The translations under genes were made by a program, and so were the position numbers. A model generated the notes under the pieces. The model was not told the origin of the DNA and did not search any database. It saw only the letters and a program-made list of their open reading frames with translations. This document shows, piece after piece, positions 1 to 18,880 of a DNA stretch of 64,000 nucleotides (its first letter is position 1; each line of letters opens with the position of its first letter). Location of the stretch: positions 1 through 64,000 of the IMG/VR virus record IMGVR_UViG_3300042311_000577; one strand, given 5' to 3'. Origin of the DNA: a virus.

Positions 1-80
1 TTATCTCAGAATGAGTTTGATAATTTAGAGATAAAATGGACAAAATTAGTTTCAGATAAAAATATAATACTTCAGTTTAT

Positions 81-338
81 ATGAAAAATACAATTTTAGA
101 AATAGAAAAACAGATTGCTTTGTGTAAGCAAGAACTAGAAGAACTGCATCTCGCAGAGCCAAGTGAATATTGGTATAAGATCAGAAGAGCAGATTTGGAA
201 TTACATATCTATCAGCTGGAAGAAGCTATAGAAGTTGAGAAAAAGTTATTAAGAGAAAAAACAGCCGCAGAGAATACATTTATTATTGTTTTATGGGCAA
301 TAGTATTAACAGGATTAATTTTATTATGCAAATTATGA
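81..338 (+). CDS. hypothetical protein with coiled coil and C-terminal transmembrane helix
   Basis: 85-aa ORF with hydrophobic C-terminus FIIVLWAIVLTGLILL; stop overlaps the next ATG (ATGA). Confidence 0.7.
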   Translation: MKNTILEIEKQIALCKQELEELHLAEPSEYWYKIRRADLELHIYQLEEAIEVEKKLLREKTAAENTFIIVLWAIVLTGLILLCKL

Positions 339-607
339 AAAAGTTATTTATGATTATGGCACTTATGATTGCCGGAGTTGGTAGCTCACAAAAATTACCA
401 AAGAATCTTACTAAAAGTGAGAGAAAGTTTGTAAAAAATGTTATTGAACTTACTAATGATGTTCTAGTGACTGTAACCAAAAGAAATGACAATGTGATTG
501 TAGTAGAGTTTCATAACACTATGTACACTCTCACAGAGAACGGTTACATTGATGAAATGTGGATCCTTGAAGATGAGGATTGGATGGCATTAGGTAGAGA
601 AAAATAA
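335..607 (+). CDS. hypothetical protein with signal peptide
   Basis: ATG at 335 coupled to the upstream stop; MKKLFMIMALMIAGVGSSQ resembles a signal peptide. Confidence 0.7.
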   Translation: MKKLFMIMALMIAGVGSSQKLPKNLTKSERKFVKNVIELTNDVLVTVTKRNDNVIVVEFHNTMYTLTENGYIDEMWILEDEDWMALGREK

Positions 608-621
608 CCTTTAAATCAGAA
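605..621 (+). repeat. junction repeat TAACCTTTAAATCAGAA, copy 1
   Basis: 16-bp core AACCTTTAAATCAGAA recurs exactly at 842, 1063, 1265 and 11312; ATG follows at 626. Confidence 0.9.
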
Positions 622-625
622 TAGA

Positions 626-850
626 ATGAAAGCAAAAGAAAAAGCAAAAGAGTTAGTTGAAAAATTTATGCCATTTATTGCAGGTGCGGATAGGTATAAT
701 ACAACACTTGGAATTTATGATATAGATATATCCAAACAATGTGCATTAATTGCAGTTGATGAATTAATTGAAGAATCTTATTTTACATATGGTTATTATG
801 ATAGGCAAGATTATTGGGAACAAGTTAAACAAGAAATAAATAACCTTTAA
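626..850 (+). CDS. hypothetical phage protein
   Basis: 74-aa ORF flanked by junction repeats. Confidence 0.75.
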   Translation: MKAKEKAKELVEKFMPFIAGADRYNTTLGIYDIDISKQCALIAVDELIEESYFTYGYYDRQDYWEQVKQEINNL

Positions 851-857
851 ATCAGAA
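841..857 (+). repeat. junction repeat, copy 2
   Basis: TAACCTTTAAATCAGAA; ATG at 860. Confidence 0.9.
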
Positions 858-859
858 CA

Positions 860-1081
860 ATGAAAACAGTATTAGAACAAGTAATATTTGACTTATTTGA
901 TGGAAACCCACCTCAATGGGCAGAACTTATAATTAAGGAAGGTTTAGAAGCTGAGAAAGAGCAGATGTGCAAGTTTGCATCTGACTATGTAGAAACTCAA
1001 TGCAATGCAAGTTTTGATGGCAGTGTATCTGTTGACATTACAACAGAAGAGTATTATAACCAAACCTTTAAATCAGAATAA
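860..1081 (+). CDS. hypothetical phage protein
   Basis: 73-aa ORF ending YYNQTFKSE, where the repeat encodes TFKSE. Confidence 0.75.
   Translation: MKTVLEQVIFDLFDGNPPQWAELIIKEGLEAEKEQMCKFASDYVETQCNASFDGSVSVDITTEEYYNQTFKSE
1063..1078 (+). repeat. junction repeat, copy 3
   Basis: AACCTTTAAATCAGAA; ATG at 1083. Confidence 0.9.
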
Positions 1082-1082
1082 A

Positions 1083-1325
1083 ATGAAAAACATTAAATTT
1101 AAACTACATAAGATTGTAGGTAAATGGGTGAATGATGATGTAGATATTATCCCATCAATAAAATTTAGAACTGGTAGTAAATCAAATGAAACCACATCTG
1201 TAACAACAACAATGGTGTGTTTAGCATGGTTAAAATGGGCTATTGGTATATCAGTTAGTAAATTAACCTTTAAATCAGAAAAGAATGGCAAGAGTAGCAA
1301 AAGCAATGAAAAAAGACCTAGTTAA
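1083..1325 (+). CDS. hypothetical protein
   Basis: Internal ATG at 1083 directly after the repeat is the likely start of track ORF 1005..1325. Confidence 0.6.
   Translation: MKNIKFKLHKIVGKWVNDDVDIIPSIKFRTGSKSNETTSVTTTMVCLAWLKWAIGISVSKLTFKSEKNGKSSKSNEKRPS
1264..1280 (+). repeat. junction repeat, copy 4
   Basis: TAACCTTTAAATCAGAA; ATG at 1285. Confidence 0.9.
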
Positions 1326-1830
1326 AGCAAAAAAAGCTTGTATAGGCAAAAAGATGAAAGGTTTTAAGTTTGCTGATTGTAAGTCAGCCCATTGGCACAT
1401 TGAAATGGAAGATTTTATTGGACTAGAAGCAGAAGTTATTGCTTATAATGAAGCTTGGAATTACTTTACAGTAAAGTTTTCTAAGGCTAGGGAACACTGG
1501 GCTTATCCTGCAACCAAGGCTCTGAAACATATTGTAAAAGAATCTGATATAGTTGAGAAAAATGTAATTGAAGAGGTTATTGATGATACTTACACAGCAA
1601 TGCTTAAGGAAGAGATAACAGATTTATCAGCCAGATTAGATGCTGCTTTTAAAGAACAGGAAGAAATGCTTGAAGAGTTAAGATCATGGTTAAAACCATT
1701 TCCTAGTGCTTTTACAAAGCTTCAGGAACATGCTGGTATAATTACTCCGGAAGATGTTACTTATCACACAAATCTTATTCTTAAGATTATGGAACATAAG
1801 TTTGGTTATAAACCTAAATCTTGGGAGTAA
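1285..1830 (+). CDS. hypothetical protein
   Basis: 181-aa ORF. Confidence 0.75.
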   Translation: MARVAKAMKKDLVKAKKACIGKKMKGFKFADCKSAHWHIEMEDFIGLEAEVIAYNEAWNYFTVKFSKAREHWAYPATKALKHIVKESDIVEKNVIEEVIDDTYTAMLKEEITDLSARLDAAFKEQEEMLEELRSWLKPFPSAFTKLQEHAGIITPEDVTYHTNLILKIMEHKFGYKPKSWE

Positions 1831-2144
1831 TGAAAAAGTCTGAAGCATTGAAAAAAGCTGCTGAAGCAGAGGATAATGATCTTAAAGCTCTCGGTCTTAT
1901 GACCGGGAGTTTAAGAGAAGGTAGACTAGAAAGGTTTACTGAAACTTACTTACCTCAATTACTGAAAATGGGATATGACATTGCTCAAGATGATGAGATG
2001 TTTAGATATACTATTGATACAGAAATGGGAGGAAAGACATTTGGTATAGTAGATTACTATCCAAAGGCAAATAATCTATGCATTAGGAAGACCAATAAAT
2101 GGGAGAAGCCCGGTCTCAAATGGATTGTAGAGAATTTGTTGTAA
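1830..2144 (+). CDS. hypothetical protein
   Basis: ATG at 1830 overlaps the upstream TAA (TAATG). Confidence 0.7.
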   Translation: MKKSEALKKAAEAEDNDLKALGLMTGSLREGRLERFTETYLPQLLKMGYDIAQDDEMFRYTIDTEMGGKTFGIVDYYPKANNLCIRKTNKWEKPGLKWIVENLL

Positions 2145-2257
2145 ATTGCTAAATGTATTGATACATAAACTTCAGTTCCCACACAGCGATGAGATGGGCT
2201 AAGTTATATACAATTTCTCGGAGCTGGAAGTAGAAAGCTGAAGAGTGTGTCTTTTAT

Positions 2258-2367
2258 AGTCCCATAGCTCAGTTGATAGAGTGGAACCTCTGAAAATGTA
2301 AAGGATAGCCTGTTAGGGCATGCAATACATCAGGTTCAGGTCACAGGTTTGAATCCTGTTGGGATTA
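2258..2367 (+). tRNA. tRNA-like gene with a 44-nt anticodon loop (intron-containing, pseudo-tRNA or tRNA-like ncRNA); identity undetermined
   Basis: Acceptor AGTCCCA/TGGGATT; D arm GCTC-AGTTGATA-GAGT; anticodon stem GAACC(2284-2288)/GGTTC(2333-2337); variable AGGTC; T arm ACAGG-TTTGAAT-CCTGT. Confidence 0.7.
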
Positions 2368-2411
2368 CTAAAAAATGCTATTGTGGGAGTGACTTACTTC
2401 AACCCTCTGAC

Positions 2412-2436
2412 AGCCGGGAAAGACCGGCATTTTTTA
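2412..2436 (+). terminator. GC-rich hairpin plus T-tract (terminator or 3' end of a structured RNA)
   Basis: GCCGG-GAAAGA-CCGGC followed by ATTTTTT. Confidence 0.55.
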
Positions 2437-2453
2437 TTGTTTAATTTAAATTT

Positions 2454-2789
2454 ATGATTATGAACTGGTTAGGAAAAATGTTCAAGAAAAAGAAAAAAGG
2501 TTATAATACTGATGGTCAGTATAAACTGCTGATCATTGATGATAAGGCAGAGTTGCTACACCATAATCTTGGTATTACAGACAAGAGAGCAGATGAGTTA
2601 CTTGAATTGTGTGTAAAAACACATGATGAGTATGACATTCTGCATGAAGCATTGGAGAAACTTGTTAGTGAGTGTAAGCATACTAATGAAATAGTGTTTA
2701 CTTCACTCATGATGCAAAGACTAATTGATAAGCTCAATAGTTCAAACAGGGTACATAACATGCTTAAAAACATGTTTGGCCGTGGATAA
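2454..2789 (+). CDS. hypothetical protein
   Basis: 111-aa ORF after the non-coding region. Confidence 0.7.
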   Translation: MIMNWLGKMFKKKKKGYNTDGQYKLLIIDDKAELLHHNLGITDKRADELLELCVKTHDEYDILHEALEKLVSECKHTNEIVFTSLMMQRLIDKLNSSNRVHNMLKNMFGRG

Positions 2790-2793
2790 GTAC

Positions 2794-2994
2794 ATGATTA
2801 ACTCTGTCTTAGGATTTGATCTTAAGGCAGAGATAGTTGACAAAGAGGGTCAGGTTCTTAAAACTGGTTGTAGAAGTTGTGTAGTTCCCAAGAAAAAGGG
2901 AATTATAAAGTCTAGAATACTAGATAAAAGCTTCTTTACAACCTTTAATGAACCTCTGTTAGCTAAAATTAGAAACTTAAGACAGAACTTATGA
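2794..2994 (+). CDS. hypothetical protein
   Basis: ORF whose stop overlaps the next ATG; start uncertain (GTG 2782 or ATG 2794). Confidence 0.55.
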   Translation: MINSVLGFDLKAEIVDKEGQVLKTGCRSCVVPKKKGIIKSRILDKSFFTTFNEPLLAKIRNLRQNL

Positions 2995-3410
2995 ATATAT
3001 CTGTAACATATGATGATTCTGATGTAGCAAAAGCACTCAGTAAGATTATCAAAGATCCAAATGCAGAAGAGTTTGTCAAACTATTTACTCCCATTATTTG
3101 TGGTAATTCACAAACAGTAGATCATTTCTTCAAACTTATGATAGGTAATAAACTACCAGATACTATACCTATTGGTACTTTATGCAGAATGTCTATAGAT
3201 AACATGGGTTATGGTACGGATAAAGAGCTTACCAGACAGGAGTTTGCTGATGCAGATGATAAAATTGTAGCAACTGTAATAGAATTTAGAGGTTATCATG
3301 AATGGAGTCCTTATATTGTTGAATATGTTGCTGCTGTAGGAAAAGGTAGTAACAAAAGAGATACAACTTATGTTAGAACTAATGAACTAGAAGTTATTGA
3401 GGAATTTTAA
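2991..3410 (+). CDS. hypothetical protein
   Basis: 139-aa ORF. Confidence 0.75.
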   Translation: MNISVTYDDSDVAKALSKIIKDPNAEEFVKLFTPIICGNSQTVDHFFKLMIGNKLPDTIPIGTLCRMSIDNMGYGTDKELTRQEFADADDKIVATVIEFRGYHEWSPYIVEYVAAVGKGSNKRDTTYVRTNELEVIEEF

Positions 3411-3452
3411 GAAGTGTATTCTGTGAATATACTTTTCCTGACCAAATGAGAT

Positions 3453-3472
3453 AGGGGGAGAAATCCCCCTTT
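3453..3472 (+). terminator. hairpin, probable intrinsic terminator
   Basis: AGGGGGA-GAAA-TCCCCCT, short T-tail. Confidence 0.6.
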
Positions 3473-3558
3473 GTCATGTTTAGCTATATAGTGCTAAATA
3501 TTTTTGGTTTAAACTTTCTATGTTAGATTAAATAACTTACATTTACTAGCATATTTTT

Positions 3559-3840
3559 ATGCCGGTAATGCAATATCAACTCCCTAATGGGAAAGTAGTT
3601 CACCTCTCTATAGAAGAGTACCTTGATCTTACAGATGAAGATGTACAGTACCTTATGTCAATTGACTATGGTGAACACATTGGGGATCCTTTTACTGGTT
3701 CTGCGGTTGAGAAAAACACCAAAGAAAAATGTATAGACTTAGACTTCCTTCCTTTGGATGACTATGACTTAGATGATATTATATCAGATGATCAACCATT
3801 TGATGATATCATTGACTTATCAGACAGCTTAGATATGTAG
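3559..3840 (+). CDS. small highly acidic hypothetical protein
   Basis: 93-aa ORF with Asp-rich C-terminal half. Confidence 0.75.
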   Translation: MPVMQYQLPNGKVVHLSIEEYLDLTDEDVQYLMSIDYGEHIGDPFTGSAVEKNTKEKCIDLDFLPLDDYDLDDIISDDQPFDDIIDLSDSLDM

Positions 3841-3857
3841 TTTTAAACTACACACTA

Positions 3858-3895
3858 CCTCTAAAGTGAGTAATTAGGGGAACAGTATCTACTCA
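3858..3895 (+). promoter_or_regulatory. predicted H-type pseudoknot in the 5' leader
   Basis: Stem 1 CCTCTAA(3858-3864)/TTAGGGG(3874-3880); loop TGAGTA(3867-3872) pairs with TACTCA(3890-3895). Confidence 0.5.
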
Positions 3896-3935
3896 AAAAA
3901 TCAATTTATTTATTAATCATTTTAAATTTTTAAAG

Positions 3936-4412
3936 ATGAACTCAAAAGTATTTGTATTAGCAGATGAAACAGGTGCAGTTATTAATGTTTCAGAAAACAA
4001 TCCTGAATTTGGATATGTACGTGTACAACAAACAAGAACTGTTGTAGATGACAATGGATTTGTTCGTAGAAAAGCTATCAGTGCATTAATGCCTGGTACA
4101 ATAGAAGATTTACAAGATATGAATCTTTATGGTGGTCAAGAAATTGACGGTAAAATTATAGTTGAAGAATCATTGAGTCCTTTTAACAAAAAGAGACCAG
4201 AGCGTGATTTGAAAATAGCTGGTGAAACAGGTATTGTTTGTAGATTAGGTGGTCTTCCAATTTATAGAAGAACTAAATTTACTTTTAATACATCATTAGC
4301 TGATTCTACAATTGAGCATGATAATGTTGCTGAATTAAAAGCAGCATATGCAGCTCAAGTTGCAAAAGAAGCTGTTTCTTCTACAGAGGAAGATTTCTCA
4401 ATAGAAGGATAG
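3936..4412 (+). CDS. hypothetical protein, possibly ssDNA-binding
   Basis: 158 aa, beta-rich, acidic tip EEDFSIEG; followed by its own terminator; SSB role is inference. Confidence 0.7.
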   Translation: MNSKVFVLADETGAVINVSENNPEFGYVRVQQTRTVVDDNGFVRRKAISALMPGTIEDLQDMNLYGGQEIDGKIIVEESLSPFNKKRPERDLKIAGETGIVCRLGGLPIYRRTKFTFNTSLADSTIEHDNVAELKAAYAAQVAKEAVSSTEEDFSIEG

Positions 4413-4429
4413 TATTTACTTAGTTAGAC

Positions 4430-4454
4430 AAGGGGGCAGAAATGTCCCCTTTTT
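4430..4454 (+). terminator. intrinsic terminator
   Basis: AAGGGGGCA-GAAA-TGTCCCCTT plus T-run. Confidence 0.75.
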
Positions 4455-4477
4455 ATTATTTATGAATGTAAAATTGT

Positions 4478-4966
4478 ATGATTAAAATGGAAAAGTTAAA
4501 ACAACAGATTAGAAATTATCAATTGCATGCAGGTAAAACTTATATGCAATATGAACAAGATAAGTATTCAACTTATCAAAACTATTTGTATAAGAGAGCA
4601 TTATATGGTCTAGATGCTCTTGAACAAAAAGAACTTGCTACTATGTGTAGTAAGAAAAAACAACGGATTATTAATGTTTATAATAGAGCTCAAAATGTAT
4701 TGAATCTATTTAAACAAAAGCTTACAATAGAGTATACTAATAAACTCTTTGAATCATTGTTTCCTAAAAGCAATCTTACAAAAGCTTTTTTAGAGTGTGA
4801 TGAAGTAGATGAAAAGTTTAAGAATACTTTAACTTTTAAAGATTTAAACATCACAAAAGATGATATTATTAGTATCTTTATGCTAGAAGGTATACTTCCT
4901 AAAAACTTTTTAAGTTTACAGGAAGCACCAGTAAATTTACCAATGTTAAAAAATCAAAGTGTATGA
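4478..4966 (+). CDS. hypothetical protein
   Basis: 162-aa ORF; start could be 4487. Confidence 0.75.
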   Translation: MIKMEKLKQQIRNYQLHAGKTYMQYEQDKYSTYQNYLYKRALYGLDALEQKELATMCSKKKQRIINVYNRAQNVLNLFKQKLTIEYTNKLFESLFPKSNLTKAFLECDEVDEKFKNTLTFKDLNITKDDIISIFMLEGILPKNFLSLQEAPVNLPMLKNQSV

Positions 4967-5244
4967 AAACATTTTATGACATTAGAGAGTTGTCTCCAGC
5001 TAGAGAAAGATGGAGACCACTTGAAGTGAAAGTTTTACTAAGTAGTAAAAAAAGATACTTAATCAAAGTTATTACAACAGACCATCCAAGATGTACTGAT
5101 CTGATAGATAAGTATATTGTTTGTCCAAAGGATAATTTTCTTGATAAAGATCTTCATATTACTGAAAGCTTTTGGAGTGCTCTAAAGAATTTTTTATTTA
5201 AGAAAGCAGCTAAGGTTGCTGAGTTTCCTGAAGAATTATTATAA
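4963..5244 (+). CDS. hypothetical protein
   Basis: 93-aa ORF with ATGA overlap. Confidence 0.7.
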   Translation: MKTFYDIRELSPARERWRPLEVKVLLSSKKRYLIKVITTDHPRCTDLIDKYIVCPKDNFLDKDLHITESFWSALKNFLFKKAAKVAEFPEELL

Positions 5245-5266
5245 ATAAAAATTAAAAACTAAAATT

Positions 5267-5473
5267 ATGACAAGAGAAGAATTTGAAAAAAAAGTGTATG
5301 ATTTAACTAATCAGTTAACAGAATTGGTAAAACAATTACCAGAAATTCCTGAACTAGATGATACTCTAGATCCACGTGACTATGATACAAGTAAAAGTTC
5401 ATTTGGACTTTCTATTATAGGCTTAGAACAAGATTTAGATCTTTTATCAGATACATATTTTGATGAAGCTTAA
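5267..5473 (+). CDS. hypothetical protein
   Basis: 68-aa acidic ORF. Confidence 0.65.
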   Translation: MTREEFEKKVYDLTNQLTELVKQLPEIPELDDTLDPRDYDTSKSSFGLSIIGLEQDLDLLSDTYFDEA

Positions 5474-5867
5474 AACTTGTGACGGTTGCCAAAAGGAAAC
5501 CGTGATATGGAAGAACCATGAGGGATTCAAATACTGTAAATATTGCTGGAGTTGCCAAAAAGCCATTAATAATGACAGTTCACAGAAACCAACTGATTAT
5601 AAAATCCCTCAGGTTTCTTCTAAAAGAAAGAAAAAAGATCAAGAGTATCTCAAACTAAGAGAAAAACATTTATTGGTGAACAACCTGTGTGAGGTAAAGG
5701 TGAATGGATGTGGTCACATGGCTACTGATATTCACCATACCTATGCAGGGGCTAACAGAGATGCTTTTTATCTAGTTCAGAGTACTTGGAAAGCAGTATG
5801 TAGGAATTGTCATGATTGGATTCATGCAAATCCAGCAGAGGCTAGAACCATGGGATGGTTAAAATAA
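5460..5867 (+). CDS. HNH-type (His-Me finger) endonuclease with N-terminal Zn finger
   Basis: N-terminal CDGC..CKYC; C-terminal CEV..C..ATDIHH...VCRNCHDWIH. Confidence 0.7.
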   Translation: MMKLKTCDGCQKETVIWKNHEGFKYCKYCWSCQKAINNDSSQKPTDYKIPQVSSKRKKKDQEYLKLREKHLLVNNLCEVKVNGCGHMATDIHHTYAGANRDAFYLVQSTWKAVCRNCHDWIHANPAEARTMGWLK

Positions 5868-5872
5868 AAGAT

Positions 5873-6778
5873 ATGACAGCAGAATTAAAAATATTACATG
5901 AAAAAATACCTGAGTCAGATCCTAGAACTTTAAAACAAATACTTACAAATAAGAAACTTTGTAAAGAAATACTCAAAAGAGATGTTATTTCTGAAAGACA
6001 ACTTATTACTGAGTATAATATTCCATTAGGTTATCTTAAAGGATTAAAGTCTAGAAAGGTTATCAGTTATTTTAGTACAAGAGGACAACTTAATGTTCCT
6101 AAAAAGGGATCTAAGTATTATTATTTCTTAGATGAGGTACAAAATTTAATGGGCTATAATATAAGATATAATTCAAGTTTTGTGTTCCGGTATAATTTAA
6201 TGAATAGAGTTTCTTTAGAGTTATCTAAAGAATTCAATCCTGAAAAACATACACTGATGCTTAAGATGTTTCTTAAGGATAATAAATCACTAGAAGAAAT
6301 TGCTGATGAATTTAATATTAGCCGTGCAAGGGTCACTGAGATATTAAATAAGAGTGCTAGTAGAGTTATTTATTTTACAAGAAAACTTTTTAAGGCACAT
6401 GGTATTGAAAGAGATACATTATCTCTTTTAACTGAGAATGAGTTACTAAAAAGTCATAATACACAGTTGTATAATAAATTTACAAGAGAAAAAGAAACTT
6501 TAGAATCAAAACAGTTCTTATCTAGTTCAGCTGCTAAACATTTTATAAGAAATAAGTTTGATGTTAGAGATCTTAAGAAGAATATAATTCATGAACTTGA
6601 TACAAATTTATCTGTAAGAGCATTGAATTGTCTTAAATTGGCTGACATAGAAACTCTTGAAGATTTATTATACTACAGAAAGTCTGACTTGATGAGATTT
6701 AGAAACTTTGGTAAGAAATCATTAGATGAATTATGTTATTGGTTAGAAGATAAATACAAGTGGGAATTAATCTATTAA
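5873..6778 (+). CDS. putative transcription regulator: N-terminal wHTH-like + sigma70 region-4-like HTH + RNA polymerase alpha-CTD
   Basis: KSLEEIADEFNISRARVTEILNK (sigma4-like HTH); LSVRALNCLK.ADIETLEDLL...DLMRFRNFGKKSLDEL (RpoA alpha-CTD signature). Confidence 0.8.
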   Translation: MTAELKILHEKIPESDPRTLKQILTNKKLCKEILKRDVISERQLITEYNIPLGYLKGLKSRKVISYFSTRGQLNVPKKGSKYYYFLDEVQNLMGYNIRYNSSFVFRYNLMNRVSLELSKEFNPEKHTLMLKMFLKDNKSLEEIADEFNISRARVTEILNKSASRVIYFTRKLFKAHGIERDTLSLLTENELLKSHNTQLYNKFTREKETLESKQFLSSSAAKHFIRNKFDVRDLKKNIIHELDTNLSVRALNCLKLADIETLEDLLYYRKSDLMRFRNFGKKSLDELCYWLEDKYKWELIY

Positions 6779-6782
6779 AGTT

Positions 6783-7877
6783 ATGACAAAAGATGAAGTT
6801 CAATTAGAAGCATTAAAAGCAACTGATGGTAAGCAGAAATGTAGTGTGGTTCTTGGTACAGGTGTTGGGAAAACCCTTGTTGGCCTTACACATATTGAGA
6901 AAAATACTACCTCTCTAATGAGATGTCTTATTGTTGCTCCAAAAAAGTCAATCTTCCAATCATGGAAAGATGATGCTGTTAAATTTGGAAAAGAAGATTT
7001 ATTAGGTAGAATGGTATTTACTACTTATTTAAGTTTGAATAAACATAACCCTAATGATTATGATGCAGTCTATTTGGATGAAGTTCATAGTTTATTAGAT
7101 AGTCACAGAGGATTTCTCCAACTATATAGAGGAAAGATTCTCGGATTGACAGGTACTCCACCAAAAAGGAGTTATTCAGAAAAAGGTAAGTTAGTACAAG
7201 AGTTCTGTCCCGTAGTATTTACATTCAAAGCAGATGATGCTGTAGAGAATGGAATACTAAATGATTACCAGATAGTAGTGCATCAGTTACATTTGACTAA
7301 TAACAAAGTATATCCTGTTAAAACTGGTAACAAACAGTATTTAGCATCTGAAGTAGATAACTATACTTATTGGTCAAGAAGACTAGATGTGGGTTCCGGA
7401 AATATGCATATACTTAGAGTCATGAGGATGAAGGCAATGATGGAGTATCCTACTAAAGAAAAGTATACTAAAATACTAATGAATAGTATACAAACTAAAT
7501 GTATTGTATTTGCTAATACTCAAGCTCAAGCAGATAGATTATGTAAACATAGCTATCATAGCAACAACAAGGAGTCAGAAGATAACTTACTCATGTTTAA
7601 GGAAGGAAAAATAAATAAACTTTCTACTGTACTGCAGTTGAATGAGGGTGTAAATATTCCTAATCTTAAGCAAGGTATTATTATGCATGCATATGGTAAT
7701 GAGAGAAAAGCAAGTCAAAGAATTGGAAGATTACTCCGGTTAAATCCAGATGATAAAGCTATTGTCCACATACTATGTTATATGGATACAATAGATGAAA
7801 AATGGGTTAAGGAAGCATTAGAAAATTTTGATCAGACTAAAGTAATTTGGAAAGATTTTGGGGTTAAATTAGATTAA
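6783..7877 (+). CDS. superfamily 2 (DExH) helicase
   Basis: Walker A GTGVGKT, DEVH, motif III TGT, motif V EGVNIP, motif VI QRIGRLLR. Confidence 0.9.
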   Translation: MTKDEVQLEALKATDGKQKCSVVLGTGVGKTLVGLTHIEKNTTSLMRCLIVAPKKSIFQSWKDDAVKFGKEDLLGRMVFTTYLSLNKHNPNDYDAVYLDEVHSLLDSHRGFLQLYRGKILGLTGTPPKRSYSEKGKLVQEFCPVVFTFKADDAVENGILNDYQIVVHQLHLTNNKVYPVKTGNKQYLASEVDNYTYWSRRLDVGSGNMHILRVMRMKAMMEYPTKEKYTKILMNSIQTKCIVFANTQAQADRLCKHSYHSNNKESEDNLLMFKEGKINKLSTVLQLNEGVNIPNLKQGIIMHAYGNERKASQRIGRLLRLNPDDKAIVHILCYMDTIDEKWVKEALENFDQTKVIWKDFGVKLD

Positions 7878-7890
7878 CCCCAATATTTTT
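7858..7890 (+). terminator. hairpin, possible terminator
   Basis: TTGGGGTTAA-ATTAGA-TTAACCCCAA then TATTTTT; overlaps the helicase stop. Confidence 0.5.
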
Positions 7891-7906
7891 ATTATATTAG
7901 AAGTAT

Positions 7907-8161
7907 ATGGAAGATGTAAAAACACATAAGTTAGTATTGCATAATGATGACCATCATGACTTTTTATATGTAATTGCATGTCTTATGCGTCATTGTAAAC
8001 ATGATGCTACACAAGCTGAACAATGTGCAATTACAGTTCATAATAGAGGTAAATGTTCTGTTAAATCCGGTGATTTTCTTGAAATGTTAGATTTAAAAAC
8101 TAACTTAGAAGATTTAGATTTAATAACAGAAATTGAAGCCTATGAAAGTCATTTGTATTGA
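7907..8161 (+). CDS. clpS: ClpS-like Clp protease adaptor
   Basis: LVLHNDDHHDFLYVIACL...QAEQCAITVHNRGKCSVKSG matches the ClpS pattern. Confidence 0.85.
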   Translation: MEDVKTHKLVLHNDDHHDFLYVIACLMRHCKHDATQAEQCAITVHNRGKCSVKSGDFLEMLDLKTNLEDLDLITEIEAYESHLY

Positions 8162-8411
8162 TTCATCAAATAAACCTGCAAAAATATCTCCAGAAGAATG
8201 GATAGAAGAAGGTATAGTTTATACTGTTGTATCTGTTGTAAATATGGGATTACAACCAGGTAAATTAGGAGTTATATTGAAAGAAGTCCAGTTGTCCAAA
8301 AAATCATTTCCTTATGAATATTATGATGCAACTAGATTTCTACCTATAGAAGGTCTATTTGCTGAAGCAGAAGAAGAAAAAATAAAAGAAGCTGAATTAG
8401 ATTTAGTATAG
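8142..8411 (+). CDS. hypothetical protein
   Basis: ATG at 8142 within track ORF 8133..8411. Confidence 0.7.
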   Translation: MKVICIDSSNKPAKISPEEWIEEGIVYTVVSVVNMGLQPGKLGVILKEVQLSKKSFPYEYYDATRFLPIEGLFAEAEEEKIKEAELDLV

Positions 8412-8412
8412 T

Positions 8413-8847
8413 ATGGAAGATTACACTAAAGAAGATGTAATCAATGCTTTATTAAAAATTAAAAAGAATTCTAGAGAAAGAGCATTGGTTGATCAAAGAA
8501 GTTATTTAATTGGATTACTGAAATATAGATTTATGATGCCGGAACATAGCATAGCAAATATAACTGGTTATAAAAGAAGCACAGTTCATCATAATAAAAC
8601 TATAGCTGTTCAGTTCTGTAATGATAAATCCTATGTAAAGAATGTGTATGTATATGCCCAGATGTTTCCATTTGACTTCAGTGTAGTTGATACAGTAAGA
8701 ACTAAAAGAAAAGTAAGAATTAAATTAGATATTTTACATTCTACTTATTCTAAATTAAAAATAATTGGTTCTATACATGGCCATGATGATATAAGAGTAA
8801 CAATTAATTTTTTACTAGAAAAAAATATAAGATTATGGGAAGAATGA
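8413..8847 (+). CDS. hypothetical protein, possible HTH DNA-binding
   Basis: EHSIANITGYKRSTVHH resembles an HTH. Confidence 0.65.
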   Translation: MEDYTKEDVINALLKIKKNSRERALVDQRSYLIGLLKYRFMMPEHSIANITGYKRSTVHHNKTIAVQFCNDKSYVKNVYVYAQMFPFDFSVVDTVRTKRKVRIKLDILHSTYSKLKIIGSIHGHDDIRVTINFLLEKNIRLWEE

Positions 8848-9095
8848 AAGAAGCATGTATTGCTATTATGGAAGAAAATGGAGGAATACCGGAGGGTATG
8901 ACACTTGGAGATGTAGTTAGAATGAAAGAATTAGAAATTTATAACTGGCAGGAATATGAAAGAAAGAAGGATAGAGTTAGATTACAATCTATTGAACAAG
9001 AAAATTCAAGAGAGATTGGAAAAGTACAACAAGCAAACAAAAAATTCTCGAGCCACTATGGTGAAGCAAGAGAAGAAAAAAACAGTGAACAATGA
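8835..9095 (+). CDS. hypothetical protein
   Basis: 86-aa ORF. Confidence 0.65.
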   Translation: MGRMKEACIAIMEENGGIPEGMTLGDVVRMKELEIYNWQEYERKKDRVRLQSIEQENSREIGKVQQANKKFSSHYGEAREEKNSEQ

Positions 9096-9544
9096 AGAAG
9101 GTGATTAATTTATTAGGAGCAATACTAATTACAGGAAGTGTTAGTGCTCAATGGACTTATAAAACAGTAGATAATGGTTTTGATGAACCATATAAAATTG
9201 CACATACAGCAGAAAATAACGGTGCTTTTCTTAAACTAGAAAAAGTTGATACTTTTGTTATATGGTATATTCAAGGTGGTTATTATTGTGATGATAATCC
9301 TAATATAGATGTAGTGTTTGTTGTAAAAGGTGTAAATAAAAAATACAACCTGAAAGGTACAAAAAATGAAAAGAACAATGTAGTATTCTTTCCATGGAAC
9401 CTAGACATAGATGAAGCATTAAATACAGATTTTAAAGATGCTTCATCAGTAAAAATCAGAATAAATGAAACTTATTGTACATCAGAAGTATATGAGTTTA
9501 ACATGAGCAACAGTAAATCTGCTTATGAGTTTATGATAAAGTAA
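9092..9544 (+). CDS. exported protein with Sec signal peptide
   Basis: MKKVINLLGAILITGSVSA-Q: Bacteroidota-type signal peptide with Gln at +1. Confidence 0.75.
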   Translation: MKKVINLLGAILITGSVSAQWTYKTVDNGFDEPYKIAHTAENNGAFLKLEKVDTFVIWYIQGGYYCDDNPNIDVVFVVKGVNKKYNLKGTKNEKNNVVFFPWNLDIDEALNTDFKDASSVKIRINETYCTSEVYEFNMSNSKSAYEFMIK

Positions 9545-9559
9545 TTAAAACAAAAGTAT

Positions 9560-10084
9560 ATGAAAAAGATAATTAATTTATTACTAGCAATGCTATCATT
9601 CATAACATTTACTCATGCTCAAAACTTTAAAGGACATATATCTACGACCTTTGGAATAATTAATCCAAAGTACCGTATTCAGTGTGAAGTACCAATTACA
9701 AATTATATTAGTTCAGGAGTAAATATGAACTATTATTTATTTTTTTGGAAAGGACCTATTTTTGAACCTTTTGTAAGATTATATGATGGTAATGATAAGG
9801 GTCAGTTTATTCAAGCAAAATTAATGTATGGAAATTTGTCTTCATACAGTGAACCAGATGTATCTAATGAGCTCCTGGATGGTAAAAGGTGGTCTACTTA
9901 TGGTTTTGGTATAGGTTATGGTTATAAATATTTACTTGGCAAACACTTTACAATTGAACCATTAACAGGACTTAGATTTCTTTCACGTCCACCTAAATCT
10001 GCAATGGGAGATAATCCTTTATTTTGGCAAATTTCTACAGGTCTTATGTGGGATCTTCAAATTAAATTTGGATTACAATTTTGA
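9560..10084 (+). CDS. small outer-membrane beta-barrel protein (DUF3575-like)
   Basis: Signal peptide ...THA-Q, alternating aromatic strands (GFGIGYGYKY), C-terminal BAM-type signal KFGLQF. Confidence 0.7.
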   Translation: MKKIINLLLAMLSFITFTHAQNFKGHISTTFGIINPKYRIQCEVPITNYISSGVNMNYYLFFWKGPIFEPFVRLYDGNDKGQFIQAKLMYGNLSSYSEPDVSNELLDGKRWSTYGFGIGYGYKYLLGKHFTIEPLTGLRFLSRPPKSAMGDNPLFWQISTGLMWDLQIKFGLQF

Positions 10085-10088
10085 ATAA

Positions 10089-10280
10089 GTGAAGCATTTT
10101 CTAAAATATCTAGTGGTATGGATAAGCCAAAACTTATCTGTACCATTCTGGATGGTTGGTCATGTACATTTAATGTCCACTATATATGAGGACATTCATG
10201 AAATAATAGCATCCTGTGGTATGAATATACTAGTTGCTATTGGTTTTATTATAGATTATTTAGAACAAAAAAACAAGTAA
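10089..10280 (+). CDS. small membrane protein
   Basis: GTG start, two hydrophobic stretches. Confidence 0.6.
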   Translation: MKHFLKYLVVWISQNLSVPFWMVGHVHLMSTIYEDIHEIIASCGMNILVAIGFIIDYLEQKNK

Positions 10281-10282
10281 AG

Positions 10283-10630
10283 ATGGCAGTTAACAATAAA
10301 GTAAAAAATTCAGGAAGGCCTAAGAAGGTTAAGAATGATGATTTTGTAATGATGAAGAGTGATTTGGAACTTAACTTAGAAAAAGCACAGGCATTGCTTA
10401 AAGTTAAGGATGAGTTTATTGCAGACTTAGAAACTAAGTTAGATGAAGCTTATAAAGAGCAGGAAGATATGATTGCTGAAGTAAATAAATGGGTATTCCA
10501 AGTAATACACCATTGTAGTAAAGTAGAATCTAAAACAGGTAGAATTACACTACATGATGTAGATTACTGTGCAGATCTGATTAAAAGAATTCTGAAATAT
10601 AAATTTGTAAATAACCTTGAAAACTATTAA
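10283..10630 (+). CDS. hypothetical coiled-coil protein
   Basis: 115-aa ORF. Confidence 0.7.
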   Translation: MAVNNKVKNSGRPKKVKNDDFVMMKSDLELNLEKAQALLKVKDEFIADLETKLDEAYKEQEDMIAEVNKWVFQVIHHCSKVESKTGRITLHDVDYCADLIKRILKYKFVNNLENY

Positions 10631-10632
10631 TT

Positions 10633-11034
10633 ATGAAAGATATGTTATTAGCACTTATGATAGGTGCAACCTTTATGTATGAAATGTGGGTATTTATTAA
10701 AACAAGAGCATTTGTAAAAGTAATTTACATGTTGCCAAAAGATAGTGAAGAAAAACTAGCTATAAAATTTGTAAGTGGTTGTTTTTCTTTAATTTATCTT
10801 GTATGGTTAATTTTAGGTATGGCCCTTAGTGATTTATGGTATGCTTATTTAGCTATTTTTACATTGTCTATTTTACAGTCTTTTGTAACTAAGTATCTTA
10901 AGAAAAATAAGCACTGGGAAAGTTTGATATTATTTAAGAAGATAGATGGTGTAATATCTATGGCTATTCTTTTATGGTTATTTGTAGCTCATTTTCATCC
11001 TGAATTACTTGGATCTTGGAAAATTAATTTTTAA
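10633..11034 (+). CDS. multi-pass membrane protein
   Basis: About 4 hydrophobic helices. Confidence 0.75.
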   Translation: MKDMLLALMIGATFMYEMWVFIKTRAFVKVIYMLPKDSEEKLAIKFVSGCFSLIYLVWLILGMALSDLWYAYLAIFTLSILQSFVTKYLKKNKHWESLILFKKIDGVISMAILLWLFVAHFHPELLGSWKINF

Positions 11035-11043
11035 AAAAGTAAT

Positions 11044-11310
11044 ATGAAACAAGAAACATTAGAAGAAGCTGTTGAAAATTATAATGATAAGTTTCAAGAA
11101 AGTGCTGGAAGTAAGCCTCCTTATATTAAGAATCAACATATTATGAATCATTTTATAGCAGGTGCTAAATGGCAATCTGAAAGAATGTATAGTGAGGAAG
11201 AAGTTAGAAAAATAGCTGAAGAAGTTAGATGGCAAGTTCCAGCTACGGGTAATCCAAGGGAATTTACAAAAAACTTTGACAAATGGTTTGAACAATTTAA
11301 AAAGAAGTAA
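11044..11310 (+). CDS. hypothetical phage protein
   Basis: 88-aa ORF followed directly by the junction repeat. Confidence 0.75.
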   Translation: MKQETLEEAVENYNDKFQESAGSKPPYIKNQHIMNHFIAGAKWQSERMYSEEEVRKIAEEVRWQVPATGNPREFTKNFDKWFEQFKKK

Positions 11311-11327
11311 TAACCTTTAAATCAGAA
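11311..11327 (+). repeat. junction repeat, copy 5
   Basis: 11311-11338 is identical to 605-632 over 28 bp (TAACCTTTAAATCAGAATAGAATGAAAG). Confidence 0.9.
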
Positions 11328-11331
11328 TAGA

Positions 11332-11553
11332 ATGAAAGTAATAATTGAATTTACAGATGAAGATGCTGCATCTGATGCTCAGGTAGCATTAGATGGGTGG
11401 AAGTATAGAGCTGCTATATGGGACATAGATCAACATCTTAGAAATGAAGTTAAGTATAATGAGAAACTTCCTTCTGAAGTAGGAGAGGCTTTTGAAAAGT
11501 TAAGAGATAAGATCCGGGAGATTTTATCTGATAGTAACCTAACAATGGAATAG
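11332..11553 (+). CDS. hypothetical protein
   Basis: 73-aa ORF. Confidence 0.7.
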   Translation: MKVIIEFTDEDAASDAQVALDGWKYRAAIWDIDQHLRNEVKYNEKLPSEVGEAFEKLRDKIREILSDSNLTME

Positions 11554-11622
11554 TTATGAAAAAGCTATTTGAATTAATATATGTAGCACTAATCAGCTGT
11601 ATATATAAAAATCTAGAATAAT

Positions 11623-12519
11623 ATGTCTGTAGTAGAAAAAGTTACTAGGAAGTCTATGGTTATTAGGCCTTCCGGAAGGAGTACTGACTTTATTTCACCA
11701 AGTTTTGGACATGGTTGTCTTTATAATTGTAGTTACTGCTACATGAAAAGACACAAACCGGAAGGACTTTCTGTAGCTACAAATACTATGGATATCCTGA
11801 CAGAGATTAATTCACATGCTTATTTTTCTACAGTAGAAAAACCTAATCAAACAGGAGAGTATATTACTTATGATATATCTTGTAATGAAGACTTTGCTCT
11901 ACATGCTAAATATCATGACTGGAAGACAATCTTTGCATTCTTTAGAGATCATCCACTTGCTATGGGTTCATTTGCTACTAAGTATGTAAATCATGATTTA
12001 TTGAAGTTTAATCCAGAAGGTAAGATTAGAGTAAGATTTAGTCTTATGCCGGAGAAATGGAGAAAAGTTCTTGAACCTAATACAAGTTCTCTTGATGAAA
12101 GGTTAAATTCTATATACTTGTTTTTAAGAGCAGGATATGAAGTTCACTTAAATTTTAGTCCAGTAATAGTTCATGATAATTGGCTTATAGAGTATGAGTT
12201 TTTGTTTTATATAATCAACAGACATTCTACTTTTAATAAATGGAATACTGATAATGTAAAAGCTGAAGTAATATTTCTAACTCACAATGAGGATAAACAT
12301 AAGTATAATCTAGCTAATAAACTTCCTGGAGAAGAACTATTATGGGTACCTAAAATACAGGAAGGGAAAGTATCACAGTATGGTGGAAAGAATCTTAGGT
12401 ATGAGCACAATAGAAAAGCTGATTATATCAAACAGTTTGTTAAAATGCATGATGAAATAATACCTTGGAATACAATTAGGTATTGTTTCACTCTTTTATT
12501 ACTTTTTAATTATGTTTAG
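11623..12519 (+). CDS. spore photoproduct lyase-like radical SAM protein
   Basis: GCLYNCSYCYM (CxxxCxxC), YDISCNED, ATKYVN, RVRFSLMP, GYEVHLNFSPVI resemble the SplB family. Confidence 0.8.
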   Translation: MSVVEKVTRKSMVIRPSGRSTDFISPSFGHGCLYNCSYCYMKRHKPEGLSVATNTMDILTEINSHAYFSTVEKPNQTGEYITYDISCNEDFALHAKYHDWKTIFAFFRDHPLAMGSFATKYVNHDLLKFNPEGKIRVRFSLMPEKWRKVLEPNTSSLDERLNSIYLFLRAGYEVHLNFSPVIVHDNWLIEYEFLFYIINRHSTFNKWNTDNVKAEVIFLTHNEDKHKYNLANKLPGEELLWVPKIQEGKVSQYGGKNLRYEHNRKADYIKQFVKMHDEIIPWNTIRYCFTLLLLFNYV

Positions 12520-17516: not shown

Positions 17517-18164
17517 ATGGACAGAAAACAAAAAGAAAAAGAGTACTTTGCATATCATGCAGATACCTTTAAAAAACTACTTCTTCCCAATCCTTATTTT
17601 ACTCTAAAAATGGCATTTTTTGAGAAAGGACGTACTGGAAGAAACATTCAACTCTATGAAGGAGAGCTTAAAAAGAATGAAGACATTTACATGGAATTTA
17701 TTGATGTTATCAGAGATGATAAAGGAAATGAATTAGATTATGTAAGTATGTTTGAAGACAGACCTTTATTCAAGTTTAAAGCTAATCCTTTTTATGCTGA
17801 AGAATATGAACTTAGAGAAAGAAGTTCATATTCAGTGTATATTGTGTCAGTAAGTGAGTTATTAGTTGTATTACCTGATGGTAATGAAATCTCTTATGCT
17901 CTTTATGAAAAAAGAAAAGAGGAAGAAAAAAGAGAGAAAAACAAACTACCTCAATTACAGAAAACACTTAGTGTATTTCCTGATTTTGAAGAAGAGTTTG
18001 CTCCTAAAACAGAAGTAGAACTTGACATTCAAAATAATGAAATTGCAGATGCACCATTATCTGAAATGACAATTTTAGATTTTGCATCTATAATGCTGAT
18101 GAAACCAGTAAGTGCAAAGCCTTGGTTAAATGATCTGATTAAACAAACAAAAAGTGAGATATGA
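17517..18164 (+). CDS. hypothetical protein
   Basis: 215-aa ORF in the replication block. Confidence 0.75.
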   Translation: MDRKQKEKEYFAYHADTFKKLLLPNPYFTLKMAFFEKGRTGRNIQLYEGELKKNEDIYMEFIDVIRDDKGNELDYVSMFEDRPLFKFKANPFYAEEYELRERSSYSVYIVSVSELLVVLPDGNEISYALYEKRKEEEKREKNKLPQLQKTLSVFPDFEEEFAPKTEVELDIQNNEIADAPLSEMTILDFASIMLMKPVSAKPWLNDLIKQTKSEI

Positions 18165-18880
18165 GTATAGTACTTCCAACTAAAAAAGTAAAAGCAGAAA
18201 GAGTAAATCCTAAAAGAATTGTAATCTATTCTAAACCTAAAACAGGTAAAACAACTGCATATGCGGGACTTGAAGACAATCTAATATTAGATTTGGAAAA
18301 TGGTACTGAGTATGTAGAAGCTTTAAAAGTAAAAATTACTAATCTTCAAGAACTTTTAGAAGCAGGTAAAGCTATCAAAGAAGCAGGCAAGCCTTATAAG
18401 TTTATTACTGTAGATACTGTAACTGCATTAGAAGAGATGATTATGCCTTTGGCTGTTAAACTTTATAGAGCAACACCAATGGGTAAAAACTTTGATGGTG
18501 ATACTGTAATTACATTACCAAATGGTGCAGGATATTTATATATTCGTCAAGCATTCTTTCAAGTTTTAGATTTTATTGATACATTAGCACCCACAATTAT
18601 TTTATCTGGTCACATTAAAGACAAACAGGTAGATGATAAAGGGGAGATGGTAATGTCTGCAAACATTGATTTGACAGGTAAAATAAAAACTCTAATTTGT
18701 GCTAATGCAGATGCCATTGGGTATATGTATAGAAAAGGTAACAAAACTATTTTGTCTTTTAAGACTAATGAAGAGGTTACTTGTGGTGCAAGACCAGAGC
18801 ATTTACGTAATGAAGAGATAGTAGTTACAGAACTGATTGATGGGGAATTAAAAACCTCATGGGAAAAAGTATTCATTTAA
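18161..18880 (+). CDS. AAA_24/Sak4-like P-loop ATPase
   Basis: YSKPKTGKTT, ILDLENG, TVDTVT, SGH. Confidence 0.8.
   Translation: MSIVLPTKKVKAERVNPKRIVIYSKPKTGKTTAYAGLEDNLILDLENGTEYVEALKVKITNLQELLEAGKAIKEAGKPYKFITVDTVTALEEMIMPLAVKLYRATPMGKNFDGDTVITLPNGAGYLYIRQAFFQVLDFIDTLAPTIILSGHIKDKQVDDKGEMVMSANIDLTGKIKTLICANADAIGYMYRKGNKTILSFKTNEEVTCGARPEHLRNEEIVVTELIDGELKTSWEKVFI

Follow-up and report, generated by a model that had tools for sequence, protein, structure and literature searches.

A 23-nt element at the starts of small genes coincides with mosaic breakpoints in unrelated phage genome types

Why should several unrelated small genes of one phage each begin directly behind the same short sequence? 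Here, we analysed 64 kb from the beginning of a virus record of 122,794 bp (IMG/VR record IMGVR_UViG_3300042311_000577; this whole stretch of 64,000 nt is called the window in the following), in which the exact 16-mer AACCTTTAAATCAGAA occurs five times, always on the + strand (606-621, 842-857, 1063-1078, 1265-1280 and 11312-11327). A preliminary description of the window had listed these five positions, each 2-4 nt in front of an ATG, and an exact scan bears them out. The extent of 16 bp given there holds for the exactly repeated part, but the full unit is larger and spans ~23 nt, AACCTTTAAATCAGAA-TARR-ATG, which we refer to as the element. We lean towards reading it as a portable stop/start adaptor that would at the same time provide a short-homology joint for the exchange of gene cassettes in freshwater Flavobacterium phages.

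An element conserved as nucleic acid

The ATGs behind copies 1 to 5 lie at 626, 860, 1083, 1285 and 11332, after spacers of 4, 2, 4, 4 and 4 nt. Copies 1 to 4 form an array with distances of 236, 221 and 202 nt and single small open reading frames (ORFs) between the copies, and no sixth copy was found anywhere in the whole 122,794-bp genome. Copies 1 and 5 are identical over 29 bases, which confirms the extended match noted for this pair and corrects its length of 28 by one base. A scan of the window with up to three mismatches yielded 10 matches compared to a mean of 3.55 in shuffled sequences (0 of 100 shuffles reached 10); the five matches beyond the exact copies carry two to three mismatches, lie on both strands and are chance-like.

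The gene in front of the element meets it in five different ways, a claim of the preliminary description that proved correct copy by copy. At copy 1 (606..628; 16-mer, TAGA and ATG), the upstream ORF (335-607) stops via T+AA at the 5' edge of the element, and at copy 2 (842..862; 16-mer, CA and ATG) the upstream ORF ends at an internal TAA (848-850, read as AAC CTT TAA). Copy 3 (1063..1085; 16-mer, TAAA and ATG) forms the YYNQTFKSE* tail of ORF 860-1081. Copy 4 (1265..1287; 16-mer, AAGA and ATG) is read through as LTFKSEKNG... because AAG replaces TAG after TFKSE, and the ORF in question (1083-1325) overlaps the next gene by 41 nt; its homologue in another locus (L003) ends with ...ITFKSE*, followed by TAGAATG. 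Copy 5 (11312..11334; 16-mer, TAGA and ATG) lies between two genes, called A and B below, and the upstream TAA ends 1 nt before it.

Further copies were collected by an exact 16-mer scan of IMG/VR, which returned at least 120 stretches; these were pooled with 10 genome_contigs stretches and the window (131 loci). Among the matches listed for the pooled set there are 190 exact copies, 165 of them followed by TA[AG][AGT]ATG. In the upstream frame, 116 of the 190 copies read TFKSE*, whereas 57 copies lie outside this frame, of which 35 stop at +6 (AAC CTT TAA) and 22 at -1 (T+AA); a T directly precedes the element in 77 of 211 copies. Near-copies in the pooled set differ mostly at the CC, TTTAAATCAGAATA is almost fixed, and the core TTTAAATCAGAA is, together with AATA, almost invariant.

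Could the element then be merely the conserved 3' end of a protein family, found elsewhere by chance or as a useful C-terminal tag? The commonest upstream gene encodes a protein of 60-90 aa (family 0; MKQTAVEWL..QAKEMEKEQI..YYNETFKSE), which has 111 members in 81 of the 131 loci, often several per genome and with a highly divergent middle. This frequency speaks for a peptide reading, as do the 116 copies read as TFKSE* and a cultured homologue from Elemovirus, which ends with YYNEKFKK*, followed by TAAGATATG. A degenerate back-translation scan for YYNETFKSE returned 115 distinct coding copies, in which TTT and AAA are used in 115/115 cases each, TCA in 114/115, GAA in 109/115 and ACC in 97/115. 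The exact 16-mer is present in 91 of the 115, whereas the codon usage of these loci would predict 1.1%. Directly upstream, the YYNE codons vary unusually little as well (3.2% expected), while family 0 is otherwise highly divergent (mean column identity 21%). Since synonymous sites inside the element are frozen, it is conserved as nucleic acid and not as peptide, as the preliminary description had held. The 57 copies in other frames, the copies that follow non-coding DNA or a tRNA, the TFKSE tails on many unrelated proteins and the ~40 of 111 family 0 members that lack this tail all stand against the peptide reading, which we regard as extremely unlikely. An explanation by the peptide alone was rejected on the frozen synonymous sites and the out-of-frame copies.

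Family 0 may nevertheless have supplied the sequence. A search of cultured phages with this family returned 68 records, all of them Flavobacterium Elemovirus phages, and the YYNEKFKK* end with its following TAAGATATG suggests a family 0 gene end with its junction as the probable origin of the element. In the one Elemovirus record scanned, no element was present within two mismatches, and two matches with three mismatches are at the level of the control. The family 0 gene of NC_055853.1 is gp13 (locus L349, 2498-2710); it has a ...AAAAAATAAGATATG junction on both sides (2486-2500 and 2700-2714), which may be a different junction repeat with the same role in that Elemovirus phage. An AlphaFold2 model of family 0 shows three helices with a predicted local distance difference test (pLDDT) score of 82, and Foldseek found no fold match for it in the PDB (seven rows, best E 5.8), which leaves an enzymatic role of family 0 unsupported.

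Spread across phages and breakpoints at the element

Ten whole virus records carry 1-9 copies each, on one strand per record and in tight clusters, and a reversed control pattern had no match in these ten records. The genomes of 32 kb and 67 kb that carry the element are complete; further carriers are a 95%-complete record of 160 kb, one of 224 kb and records of 118-123 kb, with a 121-kb genome among them. The backbone DNA of the window is present in the 118-kb record and absent from the 32-, 67- and 224-kb records. The element is thus common to unrelated phage genome types and not private to the phage of the window.

The host is most probably Flavobacterium, because the exact 23-mer occurs in Flavobacterium genomes and in contigs of lake metagenome-assembled genomes (MAGs), because the homologues of the commonest cassette protein in cultured phages (68 records) all come from Flavobacterium phages, and because window DNA occurs in lake-water metagenomes. 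The metagenome runs that match the window comprise 23 DNA runs (lake, freshwater or unlabelled) plus a single RNA run, of riverine origin and with a share of 0.07. Cultured phages offered no close relative of the array region: megablast of window positions 1-12000 against 50,697 cultured-phage records gave no match, and blastn of positions 560-1400 against cultured phages gave only weak matches (E 0.02 or worse). Each of three isolate Flavobacterium genomes (4.8-5.4 Mb) contains the core once and without mismatch, always at the same orthologous junction, and a general host signal was rejected on this count of one core copy per ~5-Mb isolate genome. In these three species (L124, 7521-7543 on the - strand; L127; L128), the exact 23-mer lies between tandem 2TM-domain genes, upstream of a LytTR-type response regulator; the chromosomal copy could be due to chance or to transfer from a phage. 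Among 13 loci from other Flavobacterium species, whose orthologues were picked imperfectly by pattern, no readable junction carried the element.

Do changes in gene content fall on the element, as the cassette joint proposed in the preliminary description would have it? We compared 130 loci and the genome by all-vs-all blastn and found that 7.7% of the ends of high-scoring segment pairs lie within 10 nt of an element, compared to 0.9% for random places. At ORF starts with the element, 201 pairs break and 16 span (93%), as against 2224 and 2705 pairs at ORF starts without it (45%). The corresponding descriptive counts for tight junctions before small genes are 136 pairs breaking and 9 spanning with the element (94%), and 1020 and 720 without it (59%). 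Breakpoints in gene content therefore coincide with the element, and they do so in related as well as unrelated contigs; this supports that part of the proposal.

Single loci illustrate the pattern. Gene A of the window (11044..11310, +) is 97% identical in L035 and L108, with different cassettes after its element there: in the window, gene A and the element are followed by gene B, in L035 by a cassette of ~360 bp, a second copy and then gene B, and in L108 by a third cassette. L035 and the window hence differ by a single ~360-bp cassette placed exactly between two copies. Gene B (11332..11553, +; MKVIIEFTDED...) has five other upstream neighbours elsewhere, again with the element before it (L035, L089, L079 and L018; degenerate in L093). 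A cassette of 229 nt between two copies is 95.6% identical in a 118-kb record of the window type and the complete 32-kb record, which have nothing else in common; identity sets in a few bases ahead of one copy and runs out within the TARRATG of the next. Isolated islands of high identity between dissimilar loci have at least one end at the element in 15 of 22 cases and both ends in 7 of 22, and element-bounded cassettes of 246 and 160 nt are 100% identical in otherwise dissimilar loci. In a syntenic relative of ~70% identity, a 117.8-kb MAG contig, element arrays lie in the non-syntenic gaps between anchors and at other places than in the window. The loose contig ends seen in four metagenome runs (626, 1090/1092 and 11306) are suggestive, though noisy, and one side of a contig joint 632>1059 has only 27 nt and equals the repeat itself; we draw no conclusion from either.

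From element to element, 127 distinct units with a median of 226 nt were found, and 95 of the 127 consist of a single ORF filling at least 80% of the unit; these 95 fall into 64 protein families. In the window, the first cassette ORF (626..850, +, 74 aa) belongs to phrog_21441 of unknown function, the second commonest cassette family with 27 members in 26 loci, and the second (860..1081, +, 73 aa, C-terminus YYNQTFKSE) is a divergent member of family 0. The third (1083..1325, +, 80 aa) shares 85% DNA identity with a cassette of L003 over 1063-1287, i.e. from element to element, and no family was found for the 181-aa ORF 3' of copy 4 (1285..1830, +). In L004, L081 and L105, two copies enclose a tRNA gene, with a mini-ORF of two codons (ATG AAA TAG) behind the first copy and, after the tRNA, a T8 run directly before the second.

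Which enzymes might exchange such units? Phage annealing recombinases (Rad52-like, Erf, Sak4) tolerate short homology. The window encodes a Sak4-like single-strand annealing protein (18161..18880, +; phrog_124, E 1.8e-30), a candidate catalyst of short-homology exchange, which the preliminary description had listed as a Sak4-like ATPase. Erf is encoded in 51 of the 131 loci, a PD-(D/E)XK exonuclease in 44, SSB in 22 and NinG in 20, and contigs of ~30 kb carry a lambda-nin-like set of Erf, exonuclease, SSB and NinG; Erf is present in one of five element-bearing records.

Alternatively, a dedicated enzyme might cut and join at the element, either in an integron-like manner or driven by a homing nuclease. 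The exchange boundaries are exact at the element and the units are single ORFs, as such a site-specific system would produce, and many loci encode HNH or NinG nucleases (20 loci for NinG; an HNH-like ORF at 5463-5867 of the window). Against it, no integrase or other enzyme is common to the element-bearing genomes examined, and no integrase was found among the ten commonest protein clusters of the loci, which are the clusters covered by a scan against Pfam and PHROGs. Inverted repeats of the attC kind are missing from the element, where TTTAAA is the sole palindrome, and the cassette junction of L035 versus L089 uses only partial homology, GAATAGTCATG, which fits homology-driven and not site-specific joining. 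We thus consider a dedicated cassette system highly unlikely.

Stop/start design and possible readers of the element

The element carries stops in two frames and gains a third (T+AA) if a T precedes it, an arrangement that would fit a stop/start adaptor for tightly coupled small genes. A translation signal, named as one alternative in the preliminary description, would thus agree with the letters of the element. In excerpts of a study on Flavobacterium johnsoniae, A at -3, -6, -12 and -13 and little structure are described as promoting translation starts, with Shine-Dalgarno (SD) sequences ignored (PMC6847099). With its usual 4-nt spacer, the element has A at -3, -6, -11, -12 and -13 and no AUG, and it contains none of GGAG, AGGA or GAGG; judged by its letters, it appears to match the initiation regions of Bacteroidia in its A positions and in having neither SD nor extra AUG (Baez et al. 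2019). The genes of the window phage are A-rich at -14..-11 and at -3, and SD-like words occur in 5 of 125 upstream regions. Pairing with the 16S rRNA of Bacteroidia was considered and dropped, as a complementarity of ~10 nt is at chance level.

How could one sequence serve both expression and exchange? On the mRNA, the element would close the upstream ORF at AAC CTT TAA, at the TAR after ACC TTT AAA TCA GAA, or at T+AA, and would present the next AUG, 1-19 nt downstream, in the unstructured, A-rich and SD-free context that ribosomes of Bacteroidia prefer. With stop and start combined in this way, translation of any ORF between two copies would end and (re)start properly. At the DNA level, the presence of identical copies in co-infecting or co-resident phages would offer short perfect homology, at which annealing recombinases (Sak4-like in the window phage, Erf in the ~30-kb phages) would cross over, so that single-ORF cassettes between two copies could be inserted, deleted or exchanged. 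It is the start context together with the annealing recombinases in the loci that leads us to favour a dual role as expression adaptor and short-homology joint. We infer the translational role and the recombination mechanism, and the same holds for the direction of cause, in which either a signal would be exploited as homology or homology would be kept by the spread of cassettes. More tentatively, unrelated phages of the same freshwater Flavobacterium hosts might share one pool of single-gene accessory cassettes via a universal 23-nt adaptor, i.e. an integrase-free 'phage integron' that crosses families. The adaptor would persist as the cassettes that keep it spread and get expressed; it would stem from the 3' end of family 0 and may still depend on this family.

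A number of points weigh against the dual role. The partner pairs behind the break/span counts are not independent, and junctions without the element break in 59% as well; the element is therefore not needed for mosaicism. A homology of 23 bp is short for recombination, and exchange is here read from mosaic patterns. The pooled loci were gathered by exact match, which inflates all counts of exactness apart from those of the YYNETFKSE back-translation sample, the only one free of this bias. On the start-site profile of the phage itself, the start regions at the element rank 38, 47, 48 and 77 of 125 and are only moderate; with such middling ranks, general A-richness fails to explain the fixed CC, TTT, TC and G, and the fixed C, T and G positions must have a specific reader (protein or RNA) or a homology requirement behind them. 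The evidence on expression is limited to assembled contigs and the one RNA run of small share. Finally, a few copies (L122, L091, L105, L004/L081) directly follow a terminator-like hairpin with T-run or the T8-bearing end of a tRNA, which would fit a promoter within the element.

In a promoter reading, the element would be a regulatory cassette for early or middle transcription by the polymerase of the host, perhaps aided by a phage factor, resembling the promoter-early stem-loops (PeSLs) of T4-type phages, with leaderless or near-leaderless mRNAs and with recombination as a by-product. TAAATCAG matches four of the six nearly invariant positions of the -7 element of F. johnsoniae (TAHHTTTG), and transcription, expected to start 4-5 nt behind the G, would begin 1-3 nt ahead of the ATG, as far as excerpts of the F. 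johnsoniae study go (PMC6847099). One copy precedes a tRNA gene, and T4-type PeSLs are, in excerpts of the work on them, promoter cassettes able to drive modular shuffling (PMC2839356). However, the remaining two of the six -7 positions deviate (C for T-7 and A for T-6), and no upstream element or hairpin is conserved (median minimum free energy of -3 kcal/mol in the 45 nt upstream of 307 distinct copies). According to the same excerpts on F. johnsoniae, 87% of its transcripts have leaders longer than 10 nt (PMC6847099). A promoter would leave the fixed TAR stop unexplained, and with copies every ~200 nt in co-directional arrays it would amount to one promoter per 70-aa ORF. A scan for sigma-70-type promoters, of a kind not designed for Bacteroidia, revealed no excess (60 found, 70.8 expected). 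Taken together, we judge a host-polymerase promoter to be possible but rather unlikely.

The preliminary description had instead proposed a promoter for a virion RNA polymerase and had assigned this function to a giant protein of 4028 aa (40083-52169, -), which adjoins a second giant of 2020 aa (34021-40083, -). Both contain a DFDID motif (at residue 2549 and residue 546, respectively), and this motif is all that stands of the assignment. Neither protein matched an RNA polymerase family in PHROGs, where the 4028-aa protein matched only a family of unknown function, and the latter had 0 sequence matches in the PDB. Its homologue, searched with the first 3000 aa, was found in one of five element-bearing records and in none of the complete 32-kb, the complete 67-kb and the 95%-complete 160-kb record, all of which carry the element. 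In excerpts of a preprint on the crAss-like phage phi14:2, early transcripts of the virion RNA polymerase are described without a common upstream motif. With the element present where the giant protein is missing and with no early motif in phi14:2, a virion RNA polymerase promoter is not supported.

Apart from a polymerase, the reader might be a phage or host protein or an RNA that binds the element as RNA or DNA and controls the accessory genes, e.g. as translational repressor of early genes; a role of this sort has also been left open for the start-associated sequences of Cluster K mycobacteriophages. Such an operator would account for the position-specific constraint, with an almost invariant core (TTTAAATCAGAA and AATA) and a variable CC, as well as for the frozen synonymous sites and the fixed distance to the ATG, and only a subset of genes per genome carries the element. 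Family 0 is present in 5/5 element-bearing records tested, which makes a shared factor conceivable, but its profile matches partly via the TFKSE tail provided by the element itself. No factor was identified: the family 0 model has no PDB fold match (best E 5.8), Erf and the giant protein are each found in 1/5 records, no other obvious common protein was seen, and host genomes hold a single copy. An operator is in our opinion unlikely, and we return to the combined stop/start adaptor and short-homology joint for the comparison with other systems.

Known systems and the surroundings of the copies

The nearest known systems to the element are the PeSLs of T4-type phages and the start-associated sequences (SAS) of Cluster K mycobacteriophages. 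PeSLs are reportedly also a subject of Comeau et al. 2014. Excerpts of Arbiol et al. 2010, who term them 'mobile regulatory cassettes', describe short motifs in one orientation that are repeated in regions rich in small non-essential ORFs, with indels and replacements between relatives at the motif and with copy-copy recombination as the proposed driver (PMC2839356), all of which resembles what we see at the element. In contrast, a PeSL combines a sigma-70-like promoter with a terminator stem-loop, whereas the element lacks a conserved hairpin, appears to match the host promoter element poorly (four of six positions) and overlaps stop and start codons. PeSLs lie within the T4 superfamily, while genomes as different as those of 32 kb and 160 kb or more carry the element. 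Mini-circles that arise by exchange between neighbouring copies were shown for PeSLs; the copies of the element were analysed in assembled contigs.

The likeness to SAS concerns placement above all. As described in excerpts of Pope et al. 2011, SAS are asymmetric repeats of 13-16 bp in one orientation, a few nt (3-7 bp) upstream of mostly ATG starts, before a subset of non-structural genes of different families, with the upstream stop sometimes within the repeat; the host genome is practically free of them, and no function is known for SAS (PMC3203893). The element matches this placement with spacers of 2-4 nt in the window, TARDATG after 165 of the 190 copies and one strand per record. Differences from the SAS of these excerpts are fourfold: SAS have an SD core (AGGAG) and the element has none, as expected for Bacteroidia; SAS are confined to one phage cluster, whereas the element occurs in unrelated records of 32, 67, 121-123, 160 and 224 kb; an extended inverted repeat accompanies about half of the SAS but was not seen at the element; and the element marks mosaic breakpoints, which the excerpts do not report for SAS (PMC3203893).

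Two further comparisons concern the exchange itself. With integrons, the element shares single-ORF, mostly promoterless units between repeated sites, arrays in one orientation and a shared cassette pool, but it overlaps translation signals and lacks the imperfect inverted repeat of attC-like sites. In lambdoid phages, boundary or linker sequences, i.e. short conserved stretches at gene junctions, act as crossover points and give rise to mosaic genomes. Crossovers fall on gene boundaries in both cases, but the element is a single exact 23-mer with stop/start design and not a set of many short homologies.

Why would such a sequence matter? To our knowledge, the exchange of small ORFan genes, such as those for host takeover or anti-defence, is largely unknown outside T4-type phages with their PeSLs and lambdoid phages. 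In the present case, a single sequence, conserved exactly, marks the exchange points in phage families of very different genome size, and it does so in a host phylum that makes no use of SD. If the adaptor reading is true, it would explain how a newly acquired ORF is immediately expressed in its new genome, and the sequence would serve as a handle with which the pool of mobile accessory genes in lake Flavobacterium phages could be catalogued from metagenomes. It would likewise be a ready-made junction to build and express gene arrays in Bacteroidia, and a second, independent system to approach what the SAS of Cluster K do. No description of the element was found in the literature by searches for the text strings TTTAAATCAGAA, AACCTTTAAATC and TAAATCAGAATA and for the topic of mosaic Flavobacterium phages, with supplements outside the scope.

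As for the genome around the copies, direct terminal repeats of 127 bp lie at its ends (1-127 and 122668-122794). Their length of exactly 127 bp is a common assembler word length and points to a circularly assembled genome, in which coordinate 1 is probably an arbitrary start. A block of + strand genes runs from 116,983 through coordinate 1 to 33,855; given this beginning, the four-copy array sits ~6.4 kb into the block. Downstream of the cassette locus at copy 5, a radical-SAM ORF (11623-12519, +) adjoins, which resembles spore photoproduct lyases (Pfam SPL, E 2.5e-22) and is conserved in many related contigs.

Downstream of the array lies a tRNA gene (2258-2367, +; Rfam RF00005, 46.1 bits) with full-length acceptor, D and T arms and an insertion of ~43 nt in the region of the anticodon arm, which folds alone as a cloverleaf with an extended anticodon arm. 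ARAGORN called no tRNA in the window, and the gene may be an intron-bearing or disrupted phage tRNA. Just 5' of it, a non-coding stretch of ~100 nt (2160-2261, +) is 94-96% identical in L100 and L122, compared to ~70% for neighbouring genes. The stretch has a weak fold signal (z = -1.98) and precedes a different tRNA-like gene in L122; it may be a conserved RNA or a promoter region.

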